DNA of 64,000 nucleotides from a plasmid. The notes beneath the pieces were generated by a model. That model did not search any database. It saw only the letters and a program-made list of their open reading frames with translations, and was not told the DNA's origin. Positions 3,840 to 43,601 of the stretch are shown piece by piece. Position 1 is the first letter of the stretch, and the number at the start of each line of letters is the position of its first letter. Both the position numbers and the translations under genes were made by a program. The stretch is taken from the NCBI RefSeq assembly GCF_056712565.1, contig NZ_JBWXXM010000004.1; one strand, 5' to 3'.

Positions 3840-4229
3840 ATGGGCTTCCCTTCTCCTGCGGCGGATTATGTTGAAAGCCGAATTTCTCTTGATCAGCAGA
3901 TAATTAGACATCCATCAGCAACCTACTTCATGCGGGCAGCTGATAGCCATCACCGTGAGGGAATATTGCAGGGTGCTTTGCTGGTGGTTGATTCTTCGCT
4001 TACTCCAGTTGATGGTTCGCTGCTTGTGTGCGCTATGGAGGGTGAATATCGCATAAAGAGATACAGGAAGTATCCGCGCCAGCACCTGGAGGATTTAAGC
4101 ACCGGGAAGAAAGAGGCGTTACCAGTAGATGACGATGGATGCACGGGCAGTAATGCTGTTTTTGGTGTGATCACTCATGTCATCAATGATGCCCGAAGTG
4201 GGGAGTTTGATGATTGTCCGGTTATTTAA
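3840..4229 (+). CDS. humD: HumD, UmuD-like S24 peptidase-family SOS mutagenesis protein
   Basis: 129-aa product, LexA/UmuD-like C-terminal domain; LexA box upstream; P1 synteny. Confidence 0.8.
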   Translation: MGFPSPAADYVESRISLDQQIIRHPSATYFMRAADSHHREGILQGALLVVDSSLTPVDGSLLVCAMEGEYRIKRYRKYPRQHLEDLSTGKKEALPVDDDGCTGSNAVFGVITHVINDARSGEFDDCPVI

Positions 4230-4301
4230 GCTGCAAAGGGCTGGTGCTTTATGCCTGTGAGGTTTATAATTGTGTACACATAACGAGTACACGAGGTGTT
4301 T

Positions 4302-4523
4302 ATGCAATCCATTAACTTCCGTACCGCGCGCGGCAACCTTTCTGAAGTGCTCAACAATGTTGAAGCCGGGGAAGAGGTTGAAATCACCCGCAGAGGCCGT
4401 GAGCCAGCAGTAATTGTCAGCAAGGCTACTTTCGAAGCCTACAAAAAAGCGGCGCTGGATGCTGAATTTGCATCCCTGTTTGACACCCTGGACTCCACCA
4501 ACAAGGAACTGGTTAACCGATAA
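4302..4523 (+). CDS. phd: Phd antitoxin (prevents host death)
   Basis: Translation [73 protein letters not shown] matches P1 Phd as I recall it; stop overlaps doc ATG (taATGa). Confidence 0.9.
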
Positions 4524-4903
4524 TGAGGCATATATCACCGGAAGAACTTATTGCGCTTCATGATGCGAATATAAGCCGCTACGGCGGCCTGCCTGGCATG
4601 TCAGATCCGGGCAGGGCAGAGGCCATTATCGGGAGAGTTCAGGCCAGAGTTGCCTACGAAGAGATCACCGACCTTTTCGAAGTCTCCGCCACCTACCTGG
4701 TGGCTACAGCGAGAGGGCATATATTCAATGATGCCAATAAGCGTACCGCGCTAAACAGCGCGCTGCTATTTCTACGCCGTAACGGGGTGCAGGTATTTGA
4801 TTCACCTGAACTGGCAGACCTTACTGTAGGCGCTGCGACTGGCGAGATATCTGTATCTTCTGTCGCCGACACGTTACGTAGATTGTATGGTTCTGCGGAG
4901 TAG
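4523..4903 (+). CDS. doc: Doc toxin (death on curing; Fic-fold kinase)
   Basis: 126-aa product [22 protein letters not shown]...; translationally coupled to phd. Confidence 0.9.
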
Positions 4904-5087
4904 ATTAATGGCACGCAAATACAACAAATTGTCCCTTGAAGCGTTAAAGATGCTTCTTGATGGCGTGAGTCGCCGCAAGGTAAAGCAATACCTGGTTGGT
5001 AAGCAAATTGGAGTCAGGACCGCTATTGCTGTGTTATGCCGTCAGGAAATGGTTGTGCTTAAACAGAGAATGCCGGGCAGCAGATAA
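4887..5087 (+). CDS. hypothetical small protein (66 aa), post-doc position
   Basis: ORF track only. Confidence 0.25.
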
Positions 5088-5114
5088 AGCCCAATCAGTG
5101 ATTAAAGGTGTGAT

Positions 5115-6158
5115 GTGAAAGCCGTAATTACTCCCTTTGTACAGAAAGAGCTTGGCCTCGCCACGTTCAAAGTGGATCAGGAGGTCAGAAAACTGGTGGA
5201 GGCTGGCCGTAAATTTATCATGGAGCCGGTGCCGCGTGAGTTAATCGAGCACATGGAAGACGGCCTCGTTGTTACCGAGCAAACCATGGCAACAAATGAG
5301 GCGTTGCAGCCGTTTTTTAACAGCGATGAACTGTTTCGCCGTATTGGTGGAATTGACGCGCTGGTGGCGTGGTTGCGTAGGAAAGAGGGTCAATGCCAGG
5401 CCGCAGATCGTAGTTGGTGTGACAACCATATTGTCCACGCTGAACGAGACAATAGCGCGGTGTTGTTGTGCTGGCATCACGATAACCATTACCGGATGCG
5501 TGGTTTTAATGAGCTGAAAGAAACGCTGCACAATAATCGCGTTAACTGGATACTGGATGTCGCCCGTCAGGAAATGGGCCTTTCAAATAGCCATGATTTA
5601 AGTATTCAGGAGCTGTGCTGGTGGGCTTTCATGCGCAACATGATGCACCTGATGCCGGAAGAAGTCTGCCGCATATCAATAAATAAGATGAAGGCTACTC
5701 CGCAGGATAGCGGACCTCTGAAAGAGGCGGATATTCGCCCGTATGACGATCGCGCTACAGCATATGTTCAGATGATGGAAGAACGCGCCGCGCCGATGCG
5801 TGCAAAAGTATGCCCTGTGGATGTTGACTCCGACCCAGGTATGGCGCATTTCAAAATACCAAAACTTCAATCGCTAAAATTGCCCGAGTACATGGACTTT
5901 GTGGCTTCCCGTCCATGCTGTGGCTGTGGAGCTGCGGGAGCTGGCGCTCACATTACGCCTTATATCGTTCGTCATAGTCGATTATGCGCGCATGACATTT
6001 ATGCTATTCCTCTGTGCCAGTCATGCCAGCGTGATATTGAGCGTGACCGCGATAATTGGGAGAAGACGCACGGTAGGCTGGCGATGCATCAACGATTGTT
6101 CTTTGATTACGCGCTTGGAGTCGGCGCTATCACAAGTCACTCGTCGAGCGTTAGATAA
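5115..6158 (+). CDS. hypothetical protein with C-terminal Cys cluster (347 aa), post-doc position
   Basis: GTG start; C-terminal CCGCG...CAHD...CQSCQ metal-binding-like cluster. Confidence 0.45.
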
Positions 6159-6159
6159 A

Positions 6160-6176
6160 ATTGCTCTAATGTATTG
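6160..6176 (+). promoter_or_regulatory. C1 operator-like 17-mer upstream of lpa-position gene
   Basis: attgctctaatgtattg, 13/17 to the P1 C1 operator consensus ATTGCTCTAATAAATTT. Confidence 0.4.
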
Positions 6177-6246
6177 CTATTTCTTTAATCGAGGGTATTA
6201 TATTCCACGTTGATTAGTTGACATGGGCTAATCAGTAGGTGACAGG

Positions 6247-6699
6247 ATGTTACTTAACTGGCAGGGACGCCACTTCATGGAAATAAATCACTCACGAATA
6301 ACATCGTACGAGATTGCGGATTACATGATCCGCACTAAATCTCTTCTATCAGCGAAAGAACTCGCAGCAATTCTTGAAAAGGAATACCCGCATCTGGATG
6401 TCGATAAGCGCGATGTTTATCTGCGCTTAAAGGCTATCGCTGTGTCTAAGTATTCGTCTGTTTTGATTGATGACAGTACACGCCCACGTAGATTTCAGAT
6501 CCACTCTCTGAATCCTGAATTCTTTCGCCGCAGCCGCGCTCCGCGCCGGTTTGATGAAAAACTCCAGAACGAACTCTATATGACGCAGGACGAAAAGGAA
6601 CGCCGGGAGCACCAGCCTTGGGTGATGGCGCGTCAACTTTTCAATAAGGTGGTCCGTCAGCACCGTCATTACGGTAATGCCACATCCGCACGTATCTGA
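6247..6699 (+). CDS. late promoter activator (Lpa)-position protein, 150 aa
   Basis: Immediately upstream of pacA with a C1-operator-like site in front, as for P1 lpa; identity by synteny only. Confidence 0.45.
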   Translation: MLLNWQGRHFMEINHSRITSYEIADYMIRTKSLLSAKELAAILEKEYPHLDVDKRDVYLRLKAIAVSKYSSVLIDDSTRPRRFQIHSLNPEFFRRSRAPRRFDEKLQNELYMTQDEKERREHQPWVMARQLFNKVVRQHRHYGNATSARI

Positions 6700-6785
6700 T
6701 TGATTGCTTGCCCGTTCCGGGCCTTTTGACATGTGACTTTCGTTACCCTCGCGTCAAAAAGAGTTTTATACGAAAGGAAGCATAA

Positions 6786-7978
6786 GTGACCTGGGACGAT
6801 CACAAGAAGAATTTTGCTCGCCTGGCGCGAGATGGTGGTTACACCATCGCACAATATGCCGCCGAGTTTAATCTCAACCCAAACACCGCACGTCGTTATC
6901 TCCGTGCATTCAAAGAAGACACCGGAACAGCGGACAGCCGTAAGCCAAATAAGCCTGTCAGAAAACCACTAAAAAGCATGATCATTGATCACGCTAATGA
7001 TCAACGTGCAGGTGATCACATTGTGGCTGAAATGGCTGAAAAACAAAGAGTTAATGCTGTTGTCAGTGCCGCAGTCGAGAACGCGAAGCGCCAGAATAAG
7101 CGCATAAATGATCGTTCTGATGATCATGACGTGATCACCCGCGCCCACCGGACCTTACGTGATCGCCTGGAACGCGACACCCTGGATGATGATGGTGAAC
7201 GCTTTGAATTCGAAGCTGGCGATTACCTGATAGATAACGTTGAAGCGCGGAAGGCCGCGCGCGCTATGTTGCGTCGGTCCGGGGCTGATGTTCTGGAAAC
7301 CACTCTTCTGGAAAAGTCTCTCTCTCATCTCCTTATGCTGGAGAACGCCAGGGATACGTGTATTCGCTTGGTTCAGGAAATGCGCGATCAGCAAAAAGAC
7401 GATGATGAAGGAACTCCGCCTGAATACCGTATCGCGAGCATGCTAAACAGCTGTTCCGCGCAGATAAGCAGCCTGATCAACACCATTTACAGCATCCGGA
7501 ATAACTATCGAAAAGAAAGCCGGGAGGCGGAAAAGCACGCTTTGTCTATGGGGCAAGCTGGCATTGTAAGCTGGCATACGAACGAAAGCGTGAAAACAAC
7601 TGGTCAGTGCTGGAGGCAGCTGAATTCATCGAGGCGCATGGAGGGAAAGTACCGCCCCTGATGCTGGAGCAAATCAAAGCCGATCTGCGTGCTCCTAAGA
7701 CCAATACCGATGATGAGGAAAGGCAAACAGCCGTCGGTGGCCCTTCTCTTGAAGATCTGGACAAAGTTGCGCGAGAACGGGCCGCCAACCGCCGCGCCGA
7801 TGCCGCATTGTGGATTGAGCAGCGTAGGGAAGAAATCGCCGATATCGTTGATACAGGCGGTTATGGAGATGTTGATACTGAAGGTGTATCAAACGACCCA
7901 TGGCTGGAACAAGACCTGGACGAAGACGAGGAGGAAGACGAAGAAGTTACCCGCAAGCTATACGGGGATGATGATTAA
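6786..7978 (+). CDS. pacA: terminase small subunit PacA, reading frame broken in this sequence (ORFs 6786-7661 and 7607-7978)
   Basis: Contains the pac hexamer cluster; directly precedes pacB; total span 1193 nt (one short of a multiple of 3); the second frame reads continuously upstream to about 7580. Confidence 0.65.
6979..7137. other. pac packaging site: 4 + 3 TGATCA/G hexamers flanking the cleavage region
   Basis: TGATCA at 6979, 6986, 6998, 7013 and TGATCG/TGATCA at 7109, 7121, 7132; each contains a Dam GATC; the 4+3 layout is that of P1 pac. Confidence 0.75.
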
Positions 7979-9462
7979 TGGCCAGAAGTTGCGTAACGGA
8001 TCCACGTTGGCGCGAGCTGGTGGCGCTATATCGTTATGACTGGATTGCTGCCGCTGATGTTTTGTTCGGCAAAACACCTACCTGGCAGCAGGATCTGATT
8101 ATTGAGTCTGTGCAGGAACAGGGTAGCAAGACATCTGTTTCGTCTGGTCACGGTACCGGGAAATCAGACATGACTTCTATCATGATCATGTTGTTCATAA
8201 TCATGTATCCAGGTGCCCGTGCCATTATCGTTGCGAACAAAATTCAGCAGGTAATGACCGGTATATTCAAGTACATCAAGATAAACTGGGCTACTGCCAC
8301 CAGCCGTTTCCCATGGCTTGCTGATTATTTTGTTCTGACAGAAACCGCTTTCTATGAGATTACTGGTAAAGGTGTATGGACTGTAGTACCGAAGGGCTTT
8401 CGTCTGGGAAGTGAAGAAGCTCTCGCCGGTGAACACGCAGATCATCTTCTGTATATTATCGATGAAGCCTCCGGTGTCAGTGATAGAGCTTTCGGTATCA
8501 TCACCGGTGCTCTTACCGGACAGGATAACCGCATCTTATTGCTGTCACAGCCTACACGCCCAAGCGGCTATTTCTACGATACACACCATAAACTGGCCAA
8601 GCGTCCTGGTAACCCTGATGGCGTTTATACGGCGATCACGCTTAACAGTGAGGAATCACCGTTGGTAACGCCAGCATTTATCAAAATGAAGCTGGCGGAG
8701 TACGGCGGGCGTGATAACCCTATGTACATGATTAAGGTACGCGGCCTATTCCCTAAATCACAGGATGGCTTCCTTCTTGGACGTGATGAGGTTGAACGTG
8801 CGACGCGGCGGAAAGTCAAGATTGCCAAAGGATGGGGCTGGCTTGCATGTGTGGACGTTGCTGGTGGTACGGGACGGGATAAGTCCGTTATCAATATCAT
8901 GATGGTGTCCGGCCAGAGAAATAAACGCCGTGTAATCAACTATCGAATGCTGGAATACACAGACGTTACAGAAACGCAGCTTGCCGCCAAAATTTTCGCA
9001 GAATGTAATCCTGAGCGATTCCCAAATATCACCATAGCGATAGACGGCGATGGGCTGGGTAAAGCAACGGCGGATCTGATGTACGAGTATTATGGTATTA
9101 CCGTACAGCGTATACGCTGGGGTAAAAAGATGCATAGCCGTGAAGATAAGAGCCTGTACTTTGATAAACGTGCTTATGCCAACGTTCAAGCCGCAGAGGC
9201 CGTAAAATCTGGTCGTATGAGACTGGATAAGGGTAATGAAACTATTGAGGAAGCGTCGAAAATCCCTGTAGGGATTAACTCCGCAGGTCAATGGAAGGTG
9301 ATGAGTAAGGAGGATATGAAGAAAAAACTCAACCTGCACTCACCAGACCATTGGGATACATATTGTTTCGCTATGCTGGCGGATTATGTTCCCCAGGATG
9401 AAGTGCTTAGCGTCGAAGACGAAGCGCAGGTTGATGAAGCTCTGGCATGGCTTAATGAATAA
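7978..9462 (+). CDS. pacB: terminase large subunit PacB
   Basis: 494-aa product; follows pacA; terminase-like ATPase region. Confidence 0.85.
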
Positions 9463-36000: not shown

Positions 36001-36185
36001 ATGCTAATAGGCTATGTACGCATATAGACAAATGAACAAAACACAGCTATGCAGTGAAAAGCACTTGAAAGCGCAGGATGTGAGCTAATTTTTGCGAATA
36101 AGGCGAGCAGCAAAAAAGCTGGGCACCCTGGGTTAAAAAAGGTTCTGCGTATGCTTTCCAGAGGTGATACCCTAGTCTCGGACTA
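36001..36185 (+). pseudogene. degenerate 5' fragment of a Cin/Gin/Hin-family serine invertase gene, inverted relative to the adjacent invertase
   Basis: Translation MLIGYVRI*TNEQNTAMQ*KALESAGCELIFANKASSKKAGHPGLKKVLRMLSRGDTLVSD* aligns to invertase residues 1-61 with two in-frame stops. Confidence 0.6.
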
Positions 36186-36212: not shown

Positions 36213-36641
36213 TTAGCGGTCAGCAGGCGCTAGATACATCGAATTGATGTGCCGCGCGATAAATGTACCTATTCTATCAAGATAAATTACACCGACGCGG
36301 CAAGCACCCATGACATGAAAAAAGAAACGCCCCATGGGTGTTGATGTGTCAATACTGTCTGTCAGACTACGGAAATTAACACCTTTTTCCCGCAACTCCT
36401 CTATAAGCGTGATAAGGTGTTTCATACTTCTGCCAAGCCTATCCAGCTTCCAGACAACCAGCGTATCTCCTTCTGATAACGTTCTGAGCAGCTTTTTCAA
36501 GCCTGGTCTGGCTGACTTTGTTCCGCTTATTTTATCTTCAAAAATCAGTTCACATCCTGCGCAGTTCAGTGCATTTCTTTGTAAATCTGTGTTTTGGTCA
36601 TTTGTTGACACACGAATGTAGCCAATTTGCATGAAAAACAA
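36213..36641 (-). CDS. cin: Cin/Min-family serine DNA invertase, C-terminally truncated (homology ends after about residue 113 at about nt 36301)
   Basis: MQIGYIRVSTNDQNTDLQRNALNCAGCELIFEDKISGTKSARPGLKKLLRTLSEGDTLVVWKLDRLGRSMKHLITLIEELREKGVNFRSLTDSIDTSTPMGRFFFHVMGA matches the Gin/Hin/Cin catalytic domain; the next 29 residues are unrelated and the HTH domain is absent. Confidence 0.75.
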   Translation of the reverse strand: MFFMQIGYIRVSTNDQNTDLQRNALNCAGCELIFEDKISGTKSARPGLKKLLRTLSEGDTLVVWKLDRLGRSMKHLITLIEELREKGVNFRSLTDSIDTSTPMGRFFFHVMGACRVGVIYLDRIGTFIARHINSMYLAPADR

Positions 36642-36692: not shown

Positions 36693-36717
36693 AAAACGTT
36701 GGTTTGGGGGAAGGCTC
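36693..36717 (+). other. invertase crossover site xs-1 (cix/mix-like), starts cassette tfc-1
   Basis: aaaacgTTggtttgggggaaggctc; core AACGTTGGTTT resembles the Hin/Gin/Cin family core AAACC-NN-GGTTT; 62 bp from the divergent invertase start. Confidence 0.55.
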
Positions 36718-37171
36718 GGCACTGCCCGTTGGTGTACCTGTTCCATGGCCCTCAGCCACACCACCAACGGGGTGGCTGAAATGCAATGGTGCAGCATTTT
36801 CTTCTGAAAAGTACCCAAATCTGGCAAAGGTTTACCCTACTAATAAATTGCCGGATCTACGGGGCGAATTTATTCGCGGCTGGGATGACGGGCGGGGGAT
36901 TGACTCTGGCCGTAATTTATTATCTGCACAGAATGATGCAATTCAGAATATTGTTGGTTCTTTCGGGCGTACTCAGCTTTTTAGAGATGTACTTAGTTCA
37001 GGGCCATTTAGTCAACATGGTCAAGTATTATCTACAGGCCTAAAGGAAACGGAAATTATTGAGGGTTATGGCTCTTATAACTGGACATTCGACGCCTCTC
37101 GCTCAGTTCGTACAGCATCTGAAACCCGCCCCCGTAATATTGCATTTAATTACATCGTAAGGGCGGCATAA
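36704..37171 (+). CDS. silent tail-fibre C-terminal cassette tfc-1 (TTG start, no promoter)
   Basis: Begins (M/L)GEGSALPVGVPVPWPSATPPTGWLKCNGAAFSSEKYPNLAKVYPTNKLPDLRGEFIRGWDDGRG, same as the junction of S, then a unique 80-aa core, ends ETRPRNIAFNYIVRAA. Confidence 0.65.
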   Translation: MGEGSALPVGVPVPWPSATPPTGWLKCNGAAFSSEKYPNLAKVYPTNKLPDLRGEFIRGWDDGRGIDSGRNLLSAQNDAIQNIVGSFGRTQLFRDVLSSGPFSQHGQVLSTGLKETEIIEGYGSYNWTFDASRSVRTASETRPRNIAFNYIVRAA

Positions 37172-37195
37172 AAACGTTGGTTTGGGGGAAGGCTC
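37171..37195 (+). other. crossover site xs-2
   Basis: aaaacgttggtttgggggaaggctc directly after the tfc-1 stop. Confidence 0.55.
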
Positions 37196-37658
37196 AGCAT
37201 TGCCCGTTGGCGTGCCCGTTCCGTGGCCCTTAGAAACACCGCCAACGGGGTGGCTGAAATGTAACGGAGCAGCATTTTCTTCTGAAATGTATCCCAAACT
37301 GGCAAAGGCCTACCCCACCAATAAATTACCGGATTTACGGGGAGAATTTATTCGCGGCTGGGATGATGGGCGCGGGGTGGATGCGGGACGTGCTTTATTG
37401 AGCATTCAGACAGGAATGCTGGAAAAGCACCGACATATTGTTGTAGCCAATGATGGTTACGACACAAAAGATGAATGGGAGCTGGCGACAATTTTCAAAA
37501 AAACATACACACAAGGACGGGGGCTTGATGCCTCAAATACAGGAGGGAATTTGATTCCATCACCGACACTTCATTCTCGAGGGAGTATTGGTAATACTGG
37601 CGGGAGTGAAACCCGTCCACGAAATATCGCATTTAATTACATCGTAAGGGCGGCATAA
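37182..37658 (+). CDS. silent tail-fibre C-terminal cassette tfc-2
   Basis: Same conserved head (PLETPP/SSEMYPKLAKAYPT allele) and tail ETRPRNIAFNYIVRAA, distinct core. Confidence 0.65.
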   Translation: MGEGSALPVGVPVPWPLETPPTGWLKCNGAAFSSEMYPKLAKAYPTNKLPDLRGEFIRGWDDGRGVDAGRALLSIQTGMLEKHRHIVVANDGYDTKDEWELATIFKKTYTQGRGLDASNTGGNLIPSPTLHSRGSIGNTGGSETRPRNIAFNYIVRAA

Positions 37659-37682
37659 AAACGTTGGTTTGGGGGAAGGCTC
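37658..37682 (+). other. crossover site xs-3
   Basis: aaaacgttggtttgggggaaggctc. Confidence 0.55.
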
Positions 37683-38133
37683 TGCACTGCCTGTTGGTGT
37701 GCCCGTTCCGTGGCCCTTAGAAACACCACCAACGGGCTGGCTAAAATGCAATGGTGCAGCATTTTCTTCTGAAATGTATCCCAAACTGGCAAAGGCCTAC
37801 CCCACCAATAAATTACCGGATTTACGCGGTGAGTTTATCCGTGGTTGGGATGATGGGCGAGGTGTGGATGCGGGAAGGGTCATCTTAAGCATACAGGGGT
37901 GGTTACAGGAAGTCATTATCATAATATTCGGTCATGGGACGCGTGGATAACACGGTATTGGTGCCATTAATTGACATGAGGGGGGGATAGTCTGTTGTCG
38001 ACAGATAACGCCGTCAGGCATTTTCAGCGATTAATGGTAAATTTCACCAGTCAACTCTGTAGGTGATGGTATAAATTTTGTTGCTGTCAGGCCGCGAAAT
38101 ATCGCATTTAATTACATCGTAAGGGCGGCATAA
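37669..38133 (+). pseudogene. degenerate duplicate of cassette tfc-4 (frameshifted cassette tfc-3)
   Basis: Near-identical to 38144-38602 at DNA level but with indels (ggttacagg vs ggttaacagg); ORF stops after 93 codons although the terminal RPRNIAFNYIVRAA coding block is present at 38090-38133. Confidence 0.55.
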
Positions 38134-38157
38134 AAACGTTGGTTTGGGGGAAGGCTC
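38133..38157 (+). other. crossover site xs-4
   Basis: aaaacgttggtttgggggaaggctc. Confidence 0.55.
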
Positions 38158-38602
38158 TGCACTGCCTGTTGGTGTGCCCGTTCCGTGGCCCTTAGAAACA
38201 CCACCAACGGGCTGGCTAAAATGCAATGGTGCAGCATTTTCTTCTGAAATGTATCCCAAACTGGCAAAGGCCTACCCCACCAATAAATTACCGGATTTAC
38301 GCGGTGAGTTTATCCGTGGTTGGGATGATGGGCGAGGTGTGGATGCGGGAAGGGTCATCTTAAGCATACAGGGGTGGTTAACAGGAAGTCATTATCATAA
38401 TATTCGGTCATGGGACGCGTGGGATAACACGGTATTGGTGCCAAATGACAGAGGGGGGGATAGTCTGTTGTCGACAGATAACGCCGTCCGGCAAGGAGCG
38501 ATTAATGGTAAATTTACCAGTCAATACAGAACGGAGTTATCTGGGGGGAATGAAACCCGCCCACGTAACATTGCCTTCAATTATATTGTGAGAGCAGCAT
38601 AA
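38144..38602 (+). CDS. silent tail-fibre C-terminal cassette tfc-4, coupled to a tail fibre assembly gene
   Basis: 152-aa cassette; stop overlaps the ATG of the following tfa gene (taATGg). Confidence 0.65.
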   Translation: MGEGSALPVGVPVPWPLETPPTGWLKCNGAAFSSEMYPKLAKAYPTNKLPDLRGEFIRGWDDGRGVDAGRVILSIQGWLTGSHYHNIRSWDAWDNTVLVPNDRGGDSLLSTDNAVRQGAINGKFTSQYRTELSGGNETRPRNIAFNYIVRAA

Positions 38603-39213
38603 TGGATAATGCGATATTAAATAGCGAACTTATAGCCATACAGGCAGGAAACATTATCGTTTATAACTATGATGGTGGTAATCGGGAATATATTTCTGCA
38701 TCAACTGAATATCTTGCTGTTGGCGTTGGTATTCCGGCAAATTCTTGTTTGGATGCTCCAGGCTCACATAAAGCAGGTTATGCGATTCTCCGTTCAGAGG
38801 ATTTAAGTTCATGGGAGTATGTGCCAGATCATCGTGGCGAAACTGTCTATAGCATTGACACTGGGAATCCCGAAGAAATCACGGTGTTGGGTGACTATCC
38901 GGAAAATACAACCACTATCGCCCCGCTAACACCATACGACAAATGGGATGGAGAGAAATGGGTGGTTGATACTGAGGCTCAACATAGTGCAGCTGTAGAG
39001 GCAGCAGAAACAAAACGTCAGTCATTGATTGATACTGCGATGGATTCCATTAGTCTGATTCAGTTGAAATTACGGGCTGGACGGAAGTTGACGCAGGCAG
39101 AAACCACGCAGCTTAACTCCGTGCTAGATTATATAGACGAGCTGAACGCGATGGATTTAACCACGGCACCAGATCTCAACTGGCCTGAAAAACAACTTTC
39201 TACAGCCAGTTGA
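38602..39213 (+). CDS. tail fibre assembly chaperone (Tfa / U-like)
   Basis: 203-aa product; Tfa-like C-terminal region DYIDELNAMD...WPE; translationally coupled to tfc-4, as U follows Sv in Mu/P1. Confidence 0.65.
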   Translation: MDNAILNSELIAIQAGNIIVYNYDGGNREYISASTEYLAVGVGIPANSCLDAPGSHKAGYAILRSEDLSSWEYVPDHRGETVYSIDTGNPEEITVLGDYPENTTTIAPLTPYDKWDGEKWVVDTEAQHSAAVEAAETKRQSLIDTAMDSISLIQLKLRAGRKLTQAETTQLNSVLDYIDELNAMDLTTAPDLNWPEKQLSTAS

Positions 39214-39218
39214 TATAA

Positions 39219-39716
39219 TTAATCCGCCCTCACAATATAATTAAATGCAATATTACGAGGGCGGGTTTCTAAGCCAGCAGTACCTAAATTAGCTACGGAC
39301 TGTTTATATGTTTTAAAAGTTCCATAATTAGGGGCTGGCAATCCTGCATCGCTTGTGTTCCCCCATCTGATAACTCCCGTATTACCACTAGTAGCCCATG
39401 CCTCGTCAAAGTAGAAATTAATTGAGCGGTCAGTTGCTACGGTTGATTTTGACGGTAATCCGTGAGCATGATCCTCCGTTGCATATCCTTGCTCGCTTAA
39501 AATAGAGCGACCAGAGTCAATCCCTCGCCCATCATCCCAGCCACGGATAAACTCACCGCGTAAATCAGGTAATTTTAACGTTGGGTAAACCTTTGCCAGA
39601 TTTGGGTACTTTTCAGAAGAAAATGCTGCACCATTGCATTTCAGCCACCCCGTTGGCGGTGTGGCTGAGGGCCATGGAATAGGTACACCAACGGGCAGCG
39701 CCGAGCCTTCCCCTAA
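39219..39716 (-). CDS. silent tail-fibre C-terminal cassette tfc-5 (no start codon: TTA at the crossover site)
   Basis: Open frame LGEGSALPVGVPIPWPSATPP...ETRPRNIAFNYIVRAD; missing from the ORF track because it begins TTA-GGG instead of TTG-GGG. Confidence 0.55.
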   Translation of the reverse strand, partial: LGEGSALPVGVPIPWPSATPPTGWLKCNGAAFSSEKYPNLAKVYPTLKLPDLRGEFIRGWDDGRGIDSGRSILSEQGYATEDHAHGLPSKSTVATDRSINFYFDEAWATSGNTGVIRWGNTSDAGLPAPNYGTFKTYKQSVANLGTAGLETRPRNIAFNYIVRAD

Positions 39717-39727
39717 ACCAACGTTTT
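39703..39727 (-). other. crossover site xs-5 (TTA variant, like the site in S)
   Basis: Plus strand gagccttcccctaaaccaacgtttt. Confidence 0.55.
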
Positions 39728-40155
39728 CATGCCGCCCTTACGATATAATTAAACGCAATGTTACGAGGACGAATGGTTACATAATTAACCCCATCACCTC
39801 GTGAAGGCCCTGCAAATGAAAAACGGGAAAATCCTGGTTGGTTAGAAACAATTTGGTCATAGTTATTGATTGAATGACCAGACCCAATGTCGAAATTACC
39901 TCCGTAATGAGAAAAACTTGTACCATCCTGCCCTGAAAGCAGGGTACGTCCCGCATCAATCCCGCGCCCATCATCCCAGCCACGGATAAATTCACCGCGT
40001 AAATCCGGTAATTTATTGGTGGGGTAGGCTTTTGCCAGTTTGGGATACATTTCAGAAGAAAATGCTGCACCATTGCATTTTAGCCAGCCCGTTGGTGGTG
40101 TTTCTAAGGGCCACGGAACGGGCACACCAACAGGCAATGCTGAGCCTTCCCCCAA
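39727..40155 (-). CDS. silent tail-fibre C-terminal cassette tfc-6
   Basis: 142-aa; conserved head and tail, unique core. Confidence 0.65.
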   Translation of the reverse strand: MGEGSALPVGVPVPWPLETPPTGWLKCNGAAFSSEMYPKLAKAYPTNKLPDLRGEFIRGWDDGRGIDAGRTLLSGQDGTSFSHYGGNFDIGSGHSINNYDQIVSNQPGFSRFSFAGPSRGDGVNYVTIRPRNIAFNYIVRAA

Positions 40156-40166
40156 ACCAACGTTTT
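40142..40166 (-). other. crossover site xs-6
   Basis: Plus strand gagccttcccccaaaccaacgtttt. Confidence 0.55.
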
Positions 40167-40669
40167 TATGCCGCCCTTACGATGTAATTAAATGCAACGT
40201 TGCGAGGGCGAGTTTCTGTACCTACATTTCCACTAATTTCACCATAACGTTTAACACTACGAGAGCTAATAGCTCGTAGTGAGGAAGGCACCTTATGACC
40301 GGGTTCGTCCGTTTTAACTATTCCCCCGTCACCGTATGTAGCTAGTATTCCTGGATTTACGCCTTCCCGTGCACTTCCTGCGGCGAGTCCGTCCCCTGTC
40401 CATAATTCCATATAGTGTGCATGGTCCAAAATTGTGTGTGGCTGCCAATTAAGCAAAGCGCGGCCAGCATCCACCCCGCGCCCATCATCCCAGCCACGGA
40501 TAAATTCACCGCGTAAATCAGGTAATTTTAACGTTGGGTAAACCTTTGCCAGATTTGGGTACTTTTCAGAAGAAAATGCTGCACCATTGCATTTCAGCCA
40601 CCCCGTTGGCGGTGTGGCTGAGGGCCATGGAATAGGTACACCAACGGGCAGCGCCGAGCCTTCCCCTAA
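40166..40669 (-). CDS. silent tail-fibre C-terminal cassette tfc-7 (no start codon; ORF track shows only its GTG-started distal 102 aa)
   Basis: Continuous frame LGEGSALPVGVPIPWPSATPP...GRGVDAGRALLNWQ...ETRPRNVAFNYIVRAA. Confidence 0.55.
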   Translation of the reverse strand, partial: LGEGSALPVGVPIPWPSATPPTGWLKCNGAAFSSEKYPNLAKVYPTLKLPDLRGEFIRGWDDGRGVDAGRALLNWQPHTILDHAHYMELWTGDGLAAGSAREGVNPGILATYGDGGIVKTDEPGHKVPSSLRAISSRSVKRYGEISGNVGTETRPRNVAFNYIVRAA

Positions 40670-40680
40670 ACCAACGTTTT
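40656..40680 (-). other. crossover site xs-7 (TTA variant)
   Basis: Plus strand gagccttcccctaaaccaacgtttt. Confidence 0.55.
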
Positions 40681-41141
40681 TATGCCGCCCTTACGATATA
40701 ATTAAAGGCAATATTACGAGGACGGTTTTCATTAGCTGTTGGCACGACACGAGAGGCGTCGAATCCAAGGTCATCGGTTTTGCCTATATCAGTTGTGTTA
40801 TTCGGCATTCTCGCAGATCGTGTTCCTGCATCATAAAAAGCCCCTCTGATTGCATCAAAAGACATGCCAATCCCGCCATCTGCGAACCCCTCAATATTTC
40901 TTATTGCATCCCCCTGTGAAGATAATAATTGTCGCCCGGCATCCACACCACGTCCGTCATCCCAGCCACGAATAAATTCACCGCGTAAATCCGGCAATTT
41001 ATTAGTAGGGTAAACCTTTGCCAGATTTGGGTACTTTTCAGAAGAAAATGCTGCTCCGTTACATTTCAGCCACCCCGTTGGCGGAGTGGCTGAGGGCCAC
41101 GGAACAGGTACGCCAACAGGCAATGCTGAGCCTTCCCCCAA
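40680..41141 (-). CDS. silent tail-fibre C-terminal cassette tfc-8
   Basis: 153-aa; conserved head and tail, unique core. Confidence 0.65.
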   Translation of the reverse strand: MGEGSALPVGVPVPWPSATPPTGWLKCNGAAFSSEKYPNLAKVYPTNKLPDLRGEFIRGWDDGRGVDAGRQLLSSQGDAIRNIEGFADGGIGMSFDAIRGAFYDAGTRSARMPNNTTDIGKTDDLGFDASRVVPTANENRPRNIAFNYIVRAA

Positions 41142-41152
41142 ACCAACGTTTT
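41128..41152 (-). other. crossover site xs-8
   Basis: Plus strand gagccttcccccaaaccaacgtttt. Confidence 0.55.
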
Positions 41153-41505
41153 TATGTGGCCCTTACAATGTAATTAAAAGCAACGTTGCGGGGGCGCATT
41201 GATATCCATGCCCCGGTAAAATTATCCTCTGCCGTCCTTTGAGTGCCTGTTATGGAGTTATCTGATGATGCTGGAACATAATCGCTATTATCTCCTGCTT
41301 TAGGATTAGCAGGGTTTCCAACAGTTATAACAGAATCAGCAGCGATACCTACTTTGACATTAGTAGTCAGATCGACACCGTAATAATCCTGCAAAGCTGT
41401 ACGAATAAATGTTGCAGTCTGACCACTTAGCAATGAACGCCCTGTATCAATCCCTCTCGAATCATCCCAACCACGGATAAACTCACCGCGTAAATCAGGT
41501 AATTT
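41152..41505 (-). CDS. distal part of the tail-fibre cassette now in expression position (tfc-9), in frame with S but separated from it by a TAA at 41506-41508
   Basis: Frame continues from the S stop: *KLPDLRGEFIRGWDDSRGIDTGRSLLSGQTATFIR...SMRPRNVAFNYIVRAT. Confidence 0.55.
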   Translation of the reverse strand, partial: KLPDLRGEFIRGWDDSRGIDTGRSLLSGQTATFIRTALQDYYGVDLTTNVKVGIAADSVITVGNPANPKAGDNSDYVPASSDNSITGTQRTAEDNFTGAWISMRPRNVAFNYIVRAT

Positions 41506-43155
41506 TTACGTGGGGTAAACCTTTGCCAGATTTGGGTACTTTTCAGAAGAAAATGCTGCTCCGTTACATTTCAGCCACCCCGTTGGTGGTGTGGCGGAGG
41601 GCCATGGAACAGGTACACCAACGGGCAGCGCCGAGCCTTCCCCTAAACCAAGGTAATCAAGAACGCTATGAATACTGGTCTTACCAAGAATGGCGCGTCC
41701 AACACTTGTCAATGCAGTTAACGCGGCACGATCAACACCTGTGAAATAAGGGAGTTTATCTGCTGCTGTAGCTAGTGCCGCTAGAGCAGTGAGCGTAGCG
41801 TCTGCCGCTTGCTTTCCATTAGCCAAATCATATGCAGCCTTGACAGCTTTCGGTGTGGCGGCCAGCACTTCAGACGTGCTGTTAGTGGCACTACTGAGCT
41901 GAGTGATGCCTTTCGCTGTCAATGAAGCTGTTGGCACACCAGTGATCTGATTCCAGGGATGTGTATGACTGGATGGTGCCTTTCCGGCTGCTAGATCGTA
42001 TGCAGCTTTAACCGCTTTTGGAGTTGCAGCTAATGTTTCAGAAGTGCTGTTGGTGTCGCTACTGAGCTGAACTATCCCTTTTTGTGTCGTGGTTGCATCC
42101 TGGGCTGTATACTTCCCGTTAGCCAAATCATATGCAGCCTTGACAGCTTTCGGTGTGGCGGCCAGCACTTCGGACGTACTGTTAGTGGCACTACTGAGCT
42201 GAGTGATGCCTTTCGCTGTCAATGAAGCTGTTGGCACACCAGTGATCTGATTCCAGGGATGTGTATGACTGGATGGTGCCTTTCCGGCTGCTAGATCGTA
42301 TGCAGCTTTAACCGCTTTTGGAGTTGCAGCTAATCTGTTGGTGTCGCTACTGAGCTGAACTATCCCTTTTTGTGTCGTGGTTGCATCCTGGGCTGTATAC
42401 TTCCCGTTAGCCAAATCATATGCAGCCTTGACAGCTTTCGGTGTGGCGGCCAGCACTTCGGACGTACTGTTAGTGGCACTACTGAGCTGAACTAATCCCT
42501 TTTGCGTTGTGCTTGCATCCTGCGCCGTATACTTGCTTTTCGCCAGATCGTAGGCTTTTTTAACTGCCAGCGAACTCGCAGCAACATCACTTCTGGTACT
42601 GGTTACAGAGTCTGAAATATCAATGCCGATCGTGCGGTTGATACGCTCGGATGTATCAATCATCTCTTGAGTAATGGTAGATACGCCAGCAGGGATATTC
42701 ACCGTACAAACCAGCAGTTCCCCATCACCTAACTGATATGAATCGGTATAGGTTCTGGCAACAAATTCAGCTGCATGAATATGTGACGCGGTATTAACCT
42801 GATAGGTATCTTCTCCAAGAAGGTATCTTCCCTTCAGCACAATTGCATATTTCTTGCCTGCGTTAAGTGCAAGAGAGATATCCTTACGATGCTGAATAGT
42901 TACCTGGTAGAATTCACCAATATCCACTGACGCCGCGCCAGCGGTTTTATCTCCATCCACTGAGGTGATTAACAGGTTCATCCCACCGCCAGGCTTAGGC
43001 AAGAAACCAGCATAAAATCCCGGGTCAACAATTCCCCTGAATTTTCGGTTTAGAGCGGCTGACAGATATGGTTCGTGGTATTGCACATCAGCCACCAGAG
43101 CCAACGACTCGGGTGATGGGTAAGTAACCGATGTAACAACTGTAACGTCATTCAT
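41506..43155 (-). CDS. tail fibre protein S (constant N-terminal part plus start of the expressed cassette), ends at an in-frame ochre codon inside the conserved cassette head
   Basis: Start MNDVTVV behind AAGGA; internal repeats of the phage tail-fibre repeat motif (SSATNSTSEVLAATPKAVKAAYDLA); ends ...LGEGSALPVGVPVPWPSATPPTGWLKCNGAAFSSEKYPNLAKVYPT*. Confidence 0.7.
   Translation of the reverse strand: MNDVTVVTSVTYPSPESLALVADVQYHEPYLSAALNRKFRGIVDPGFYAGFLPKPGGGMNLLITSVDGDKTAGAASVDIGEFYQVTIQHRKDISLALNAGKKYAIVLKGRYLLGEDTYQVNTASHIHAAEFVARTYTDSYQLGDGELLVCTVNIPAGVSTITQEMIDTSERINRTIGIDISDSVTSTRSDVAASSLAVKKAYDLAKSKYTAQDASTTQKGLVQLSSATNSTSEVLAATPKAVKAAYDLANGKYTAQDATTTQKGIVQLSSDTNRLAATPKAVKAAYDLAAGKAPSSHTHPWNQITGVPTASLTAKGITQLSSATNSTSEVLAATPKAVKAAYDLANGKYTAQDATTTQKGIVQLSSDTNSTSETLAATPKAVKAAYDLAAGKAPSSHTHPWNQITGVPTASLTAKGITQLSSATNSTSEVLAATPKAVKAAYDLANGKQAADATLTALAALATAADKLPYFTGVDRAALTALTSVGRAILGKTSIHSVLDYLGLGEGSALPVGVPVPWPSATPPTGWLKCNGAAFSSEKYPNLAKVYPT
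41633..41658 (-). other. crossover site xs-9 inside S (constant/variable junction)
   Basis: Plus strand gagccttcccctaaaccaaggtaatc; core ACCTTGGTTTAGG, reverse-complement-symmetric around TT like Hin/Gin/Cin-family sites. Confidence 0.55.
41815..42530. repeat. about 300-bp tandem direct repeats (2.4 copies) inside S
   Basis: 41821-42120 and 42121-42405 nearly identical (second copy lacks 15 bp near 42336), third partial copy to about 42530. Confidence 0.7.
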
Positions 43156-43166
43156 CAAGCATATCC

Positions 43167-43601
43167 TTATGCTGTAGTCGAGTTTATGGCCATAACTGCG
43201 GTATATGTTTTGCCCACATACAGCGAGTCTTCCTGGACACAAATAATGGCGATTGGCTTATTCTCGTTATCCAGAACAACCAGAGTGTTGAATGGGTAGT
43301 TTTTCCCTTCCTGCAACTGACTTTGATCAAGGTCCATTCGGACAGTAATTATCCCGCCTGAGTAGGTTGGGACGAGGTTGATGGTGCAAAATTGACTGGT
43401 CAGTTCTGCCAGATCGAAAGCCTTTGGCAGTTCTCCAATCTCATAAGTGCCATCTCCTTTCTTAGTAACCAGTGAACTGGTACCGAAAACGGCCTTGCTG
43501 ATTAAAAATCGAGAGCCTTTGTTAATGGACGATTCAGCGCGCCGCTGATAGTAATAGTCCAACAACTGACTCTTATAGAGGTTTGTTGAGACGTCAGACA
43601 T
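43167..43601 (-). CDS. tail fibre-associated protein (R-position), 144 aa
   Basis: Immediately upstream of S on the same strand; synteny. Confidence 0.45.
   Translation of the reverse strand: MSDVSTNLYKSQLLDYYYQRRAESSINKGSRFLISKAVFGTSSLVTKKGDGTYEIGELPKAFDLAELTSQFCTINLVPTYSGGIITVRMDLDQSQLQEGKNYPFNTLVVLDNENKPIAIICVQEDSLYVGKTYTAVMAINSTTA

Follow-up and report, generated by a model that had tools for sequence, protein, structure and literature searches.

The silent tail-fibre cassette c3 (positions 37659-38133, 475 nt), which lies in a stretch of plasmid DNA of 64,000 nucleotides that was analysed at its full length (the window), is a non-coding hybrid that joins the head of its neighbour, cassette C4, to the tail of cassette type X and that stands in the slot of X, an assignment that is well supported by the comparisons described here. 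The earlier note had described c3 as one half of a tandem duplication of a single cassette, in which one copy decays beside its intact twin; we do not uphold that description, given that the tail is that of X, that the slot is that of X and that the differences from C4 are directed towards X. An assembly artefact, the alternative offered in the earlier note, is slightly preferred: in our judgement there is about an even chance that the hybrid was made during assembly or polishing, in which case the real DNA would carry an ordinary X cassette of 439 nt at this position.

Organization of the tail-fibre array

The window is a P1-like phage-plasmid; over a stretch of 24 kb it shares 97-98.5% identity with hundreds of non-mobilizable E. 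coli plasmids of ~95 kb, which encode DarA, a Cre-like integrase, head-processing functions and a C1-repressor. The region at 36.2-43.3 kb is a multiple-inversion tail-fibre array of the p15B-Min/P1-Cin type, i.e. a host-range array; it comprises a single invertase gene and a single tail-fibre assembly gene (tfa), together with nine crossover sites and as many alternative 3' cassettes for the tail-fibre gene. Cassette types, of which eleven were catalogued, are named after their variable parts. The order in the window is A, B, c3 and C4-tfa on the plus strand and D, E, F, G and H on the minus strand, with the following features.

36213..36641, minus strand: truncated DNA-invertase gene (Min/Cin/Pin-like serine recombinase), PF00239 catalytic domain without HTH
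36693..36712, plus strand: crossover site s1 at the head of cassette A (motif search)
36694..37171, plus strand: silent cassette A, frame intact; same type in L001, L007 and L008
37171..37190, plus strand: crossover site s2 (motif search)
37172..37658, plus strand: silent cassette B, intact; same type in L001, L008 and L009, there upstream of X
37658..37677, plus strand: crossover site s3 at the head of c3 (motif search)
38133..38152, plus strand: crossover site s4 at the head of C4 (motif search)
38134..38602, plus strand: silent cassette C4, intact; 152-aa ORF at 38144-38602 with Collar domain
38602..39213, plus strand: tail-fibre assembly gene, tfa (PF02413), directly 3' of C4
39219..39726, minus strand: silent cassette D, intact; site at 39708-39727
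39727..40165, minus strand: silent cassette E (a paralogue of X), intact; site at 40147-40166
40166..40679, minus strand: silent cassette F, intact; site at 40661-40680
40680..41151, minus strand: silent cassette G, intact; site at 41133-41152
41152..41657, minus strand: cassette H, occupying the expressed position; junction with the fibre gene at site 41638-41657
41658..43242, minus strand: tail-fibre gene, constant part (P1 S-like, Phage_fiber_2 repeats), joined to cassette H

The nine crossover sites obtained in the motif search (AAAACG-TT-GGTTT(G/A)GGGGAA; four on the plus and five on the minus strand) are short, have an imperfect dyad symmetry around a 2-bp core and occur in inverted orientation; we take them to be similar to the hix, gix and cix sites. 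At the heads of cassettes the site has the form AAAACG-TT-GGTTTGGGGGAA, with the variant ATTACC-TT-GGTTTAGGGGAA being present in the fibre gene. They are placed where the constant fibre gene meets the promoterless 3' cassettes, and inversion there swaps the C-terminus. All cassettes open with ...NVGLGEGSALPVG..., in frame with ...DYLGLGEGSALPVG... of the fibre gene, the cassette start being in frame with ...GLGEGSALPVG.... Each consists of a common 5' block of ~215 nt, encoding a Collar domain, and its own variable tip of ~200 nt, and ends with RPRN(I/V)AFNYIVRA(A/T/D) and a stop codon. With such an array, a P1-like phage can switch the tip by which its tail fibre binds receptors.

The tfa gene (38602-39213) is the single assembly gene for nine cassettes; it is always fused behind C4 with no intervening crossover site, a linkage also present in L001-L003, L006, L008 and L009, and in the window it currently points away from the expressed fibre gene.

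The same discrete cassette types recur in the related plasmids that were fetched (L001-L011), in differing orders and orientations, and the type that is joined to the fibre gene differs likewise (H in the window, F in L001, E in L007 and D in L008). Variation of this kind in order and strand across relatives reads as the comparative signature of inversion. Type X (accessions WP_074152847, WP_042004948 and WP_085701450) is located directly upstream of C4-tfa in L002, L003, L006, L007, L008 and L009. The order in L009 is B-X-C4-tfa, and positions 37127-39300 of the window are colinear with L009 end to end; positions 38092-39771 align with L004 at 99.6% identity without gaps. Since identical variable tips carry different 5' blocks in different plasmids, including C4 in L008 and L009 compared with the window, exchange between cassettes does occur in this family.

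Two further arrangements in relatives were observed. In L008, type I is present twice in direct orientation (2231-2703 and 4182-4654), with three other cassettes between the copies, i.e. a clean cassette duplication. The earlier proposal that arrays grow by duplication is thus borne out to the extent that duplicated cassettes exist elsewhere, but it is not supported for c3 and C4. In L007, 4178-4655 starts with 229 nt identical to the 5' block of X, whereas its variable part corresponds to no type among the eleven catalogued and has no open frame to its end; this may be another cassette type or another defect. It was considered as a second example of a hybrid, but failed to parse into known types.

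Structure of cassette c3

Comparison with C4 and X divides c3 into three parts.

37659..37905, plus strand: head of c3, 247 nt identical to C4 (the shared 5' block and the first ~30 nt of the C4 variable part)
37906..38044, plus strand: blend zone, with C4 backbone in exact blocks of 41, 20, 35 and 18 nt
38045..38133, plus strand: tail of c3, 88/89 nt identical to X of the relatives

The alignment of c3 against C4, which had been suggested as a check, was run and gave identity at all 247 positions of c3 1-247 (X, 204/252 columns) and at 129 of 141 columns, or ~91%, of c3 248-386 (X, 87/150 columns), but only 58/94 columns (62%) in c3 387-475, where X matches at 88/89 (99%). The statement that c3 is almost the same DNA as 38144-38602 therefore holds for its first two thirds and fails over its last 89 nt. 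The identity at the 5' end covers 289 nt in all (37617-37905 with 38092-38380, 100%). Although the similarity of c3 to C4 is far beyond chance, much of it is generic to the array because the cassettes have their first ~215 nt and last ~45 nt in common. As for the terminal block, which had been cited as NIAFNYIVRAA and as shared by the two copies, 38090-38133 does encode PRNIAFNYIVRAA followed by the stop codon, but its DNA is the X/B-type version rather than that of C4, from which it differs at 11/42 positions in our own reading of the sequence.

When parsed into exact matches, c3 consists in its 5' part of positions 1-247 of C4, a missing base, 41 nt of C4, a second missing base and 20 nt of C4, and in its 3' part of 14 mixed nucleotides, 35 of C4, 11 mixed, 18 of C4, 11 mixed and finally 78 nt of X extending to the stop codon. 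In the blend zone, the C4 backbone is interrupted by the loss of one nucleotide from each of two homopolymers and by short edits of X type (ATT, T, T, A and TTTTC); the indel cited in the earlier note, ggttacagg versus ggttaacagg, is real and lies at 37898-37912. The final switch from C4 to X falls on the microhomology AATTT(C)ACCAGT, and no other local match between the two variable regions is as good. In a three-way alignment every position of c3 is either C4-like or X-like, with no private bases; the 361 nt derived from C4 contain no substitution, and the differences from C4 cluster within 140 nt. All differences from C4 in the middle of c3 shift it towards X, an outcome that 5,000 simulated sets of random mutations with the same spectrum equalled in only 0.04% of cases (p ~4e-4). 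An intact X is absent from the window, in which only the last 94 nt of the variable part of X are present, inside c3, and c3 occupies the slot that X holds in the colinear relatives. Given that the differences point to X and that the switch falls on the best microhomology, c3 is a hybrid of a C4 head and an X tail rather than a randomly decaying duplicate.

We consider it very improbable that C4 was duplicated in tandem and that the upstream copy is decaying by random small indels. The identity of the first 247 nt, the ~91% identity of the following 139 nt and the presence of a duplicated cassette in L008 are all consistent with such a history; however, c3 and C4 are not colinear and homologous end to end, the last 89 nt of c3 being X and not C4. 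Comparison with the relatives, likewise proposed beforehand, revealed X upstream of C4 in this slot, and the window lacks an intact X. Random decay is also at odds with the X-directed differences in the simulation and with their confinement to 140 nt, next to C4-derived sequence free of substitutions.

With respect to coding capacity, the frame of c3 is interrupted between its crossover site and the RPRNIAFNYIVRAA stop. The reported end of the frame after 93 codons is confirmed (ORF 37669-37950), and there are stops in all frames between 37950 and 38050, although the total length, 3n+1, fits the phase of the array and the Collar domain is still recognisable in the head. Given the stops in every frame of its middle, c3 would give a truncated, tipless fibre if inverted onto the fibre gene. 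Programmed frameshifting or readthrough was considered and set aside, several shifts and stops in all frames being involved. A natural third cassette type was also rejected: every stretch of at least 18 nt in c3 maps exactly to C4 or X, and BLAST searches of phage, plasmid and E. coli collections gave no homologue above C4's own 88-93%.

Searches for c3 in other sequences

Sequence specific to c3 was not found in PLSDB, INPHARED or 5,426 complete E. coli genomes; a 43-nt pattern spanning the c3 junction had no match in IMG/VR, a 31-nt blend-zone pattern had none in GTDB representatives and JGI metagenomes, and looking up the exact 93-aa ORF gave no record. Among the matches listed for the 206 genomes in which the blend-zone query hit C4-type sequence, the best had ~88% identity and none was c3-like. 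A search with a designed hybrid peptide found no natural in-frame C4/X hybrid, a result of little weight since few candidates were returned, and led to L011, another noisy assembly.

Origin of the hybrid

If the hybrid arose during assembly or polishing, reads of two cassette types with the same flanks would have been merged into one consensus. The head would stay C4-like, as reads there would lack a unique placement; the tail would be fixed to X by uniquely placed X reads; and between the two, X-like edits would grow denser towards the tail. The blend pattern is that of a consensus from two read populations anchored at opposite sides. An origin of this type is favoured by several properties of c3 itself, i.e. 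that none of its bases is private, that the parental contributions interleave at a scale of 1-7 nt, that c3 has the longer form at most of the C4/X length differences in the blend zone, and that the X-like edits are denser towards the X tail. The interleaving would be hard to achieve via recombination because the parents are only about half identical there.

Other records of the same array provide points of comparison. In the RefSeq plasmid L006, one silent cassette (4196-4656) lacks 13 single bases, mostly within homopolymers. In the ENA assembly L010 (6557-7529), C4 contains a patch of 57 nt that is H-like and the H slot is garbled; in L011, also an ENA assembly (4300-9400), several cassettes contain patches and cassette B is present in each orientation. 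An assembly origin of c3 is further favoured because, in the part that otherwise agrees with C4, its two edits each shorten a homopolymer by 1 nt (AA to A and GGG to GG), an error of the type seen in L006, because L010 and L011 manifest patchy mosaics between cassette types of the same array, and because c3-specific sequence is absent from the collections searched. In general terms, c3 has in common with consensus errors of long-read or hybrid assemblies its homopolymer contractions, its mosaic patches from a paralogue and its apparent cassette duplication, but differs from those in L006, L010 and L011 in that the anomaly in the window is limited to one cassette with clean, exact flanks.

Several lines of evidence weigh against an assembly origin. 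The rest of the window is of high quality: compared with a 98%-identical relative, ~55 kb outside the array show just two isolated 1-nt indels, and stretches of 7.7 kb and 1.7 kb align with L004 without gaps; the other eight cassettes and tfa are intact, and only one cassette is anomalous, whereas in L010 and L011 the noise runs through the whole array. The low number of indels outside the array also led to the rejection of general sequencing noise as a sufficient cause. The usual cause of such noise is a mixture of inversion isomers, which would here need an invertase supplied in trans, since that of the window is dead. Moreover, no legitimate inversion isomer places a C4 body before another C4, such that the C4-like head would need an additional assembly error. 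Lastly, the other lesions in the window (a stop substitution and deletions of 248 bp and 9 bp, see below) are unlikely to be sequencing errors.

The converse possibility, to which we give somewhat less than an even chance, is that the hybrid is real DNA and that an ancestor with the order B-X-C4-tfa had the head of its X cassette replaced by sequence copied from C4 next to it. This would have happened by ectopic gene conversion or by a template switch during replication, with entry via the identical 3'-end, site and 5' block and with return to X at AATTT(C)ACCAGT; the out-of-frame product would persist because the array was already dead and the cassette silent. Consistent with this, the final switch falls exactly on the best local match between the variable regions, the 289-nt identity, which extends upstream of both cassettes, provides a stretch for entry, exchange between cassettes is known in the family from the C4 tips with different 5' blocks, and the sequence quality around c3 is high. 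The lineage also appears to be under relaxed selection on phage functions, as indicated by the invertase deletion, the fibre stop and a split terminase gene, and a dud cassette would fit a locus that carries other lesions. A single switch, however, is expected to leave a clean junction, whereas some seven X-directed edits are scattered over the 140 nt upstream, interleaving at the scale of single nucleotides where C4 and X are too different for heteroduplex. No other variable-region hybrid was seen in the 206 genomes with C4-type matches, evidently noisy assemblies aside, and no sibling sequence with c3 was found. Unequal crossing-over to give X-[C4/X]-C4 is disfavoured, because B precedes c3 and there is no intact X in the window.

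Lesions in the invertase, fibre and terminase genes

Independently of c3, the array carries lesions in its recombinase and in its expressed cassette. The invertase of the window retains the first 331 nt of its gene, i.e. residues 1-110, followed by readthrough into unrelated sequence. Relative to L004 (18610-18857), a clean 248-bp deletion has removed the 3' 242 nt of the 573-nt gene and hence the protein from residue 111 on, including the HTH domain; the junction is at ~36302, and the relatives are otherwise 99.8-100% identical. The PF00239 match in the window covers profile positions 2-120, compared with the full 190-aa protein of the relatives, which has both PF00239 and PF02796. The combination of a catalytic domain with a C-terminal HTH that defines the Din family is thus incomplete, and the locus is best described as a Din-family system by descent, predicted not to be functional on its own. 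The deletion junction was seen in none of the PLSDB records with both flanks, among the matches listed. A short relic resembling residues 27-65 of a second invertase gene (36058-36183, plus strand, 67% identity) adjoins the truncated gene downstream and is unchanged in relatives.

In the expressed cassette H, a TTA codon in the conserved 5' block has become TAA (41506-41508, minus strand; TTA in four relatives), so the fibre as written would lack its tip, and there is an in-frame deletion of 9 nt near 41344. The terminase (pacA-like) gene at ~6786-7975 (plus strand) is split into two ORFs by a 1-nt deletion at 7568 (TT to T relative to L005), which points either to further decay or to an error in sequencing. 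All four lesions, i.e. the 248-bp deletion, the TAA and the 9-nt deletion in H, and the 1-nt deletion in the pacA-like gene, are private to the window.

Relation to known inversion systems and significance

The closest likeness is to the Min system of p15B, which reportedly undergoes multiple inversion. Both are P1-related IncY-type plasmid-prophages, and p15B is likewise said to have a serine invertase gene adjoining overlapping invertible segments, crossover sites at the junction between the constant 5' part and the alternative 3' parts of a tail-fibre gene, and a tail-fibre assembly gene inside the invertible region. The window differs in having nine sites and nine cassettes, the crossover sites of p15B reportedly numbering six, and in its truncated invertase, the stop in its expressed fibre gene and the non-coding hybrid c3. 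With the P1 Cin/C-segment and Mu Gin/G-segment systems it has in common the enzyme family, the switching of tail-fibre tip and host range, and the type of site, with halves of AAACC..GGTTT-like sequence around a 2-bp core; P1 and Mu, however, have one invertible segment with two alternatives, compared with many cassettes in series in the window. The R64 shufflon, in which the tyrosine recombinase Rci varies a pilus adhesin, resembles the array with respect to multiple inversion among alternative 3' ends of one gene, but differs in its class of recombinase, in its sites and in acting on a pilus adhesin rather than a phage fibre. Background on the P1 C-segment is given by Venturini et al. 2019 (PMC6906374), whose passages on this segment already describe truncated cin-like genes and modified C-segments in P1-like plasmids.

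Whichever its origin, c3 is an ordinary defect in a well-known system. It has little biological weight, because this type of array has been known since p15B Min and P1 Cin and because broken cin genes are described in the C-segment passages of PMC6906374. The silent cassettes of such arrays are often wrong in public assemblies, as in L006, L010 and L011, and apparent pseudogenes, duplications and chimeras within them should not be taken for evolution unless there is read support.

A real hybrid would provide a minor case of tips being shuffled by recombination that is not site-specific. It is improbable that such a hybrid records a second route of change besides inversion, in which microhomology copy-over inside the tips would give chimeric receptor-binding ends, with c3 as a failed, out-of-frame product preserved only because the fibre locus is dead. 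For the plasmid itself, fibre switching has been lost via the invertase deletion and the fibre probably via the stop codon, and the lesions taken together suggest that it is likely a plasmid-bound, non-infectious derivative of P1.
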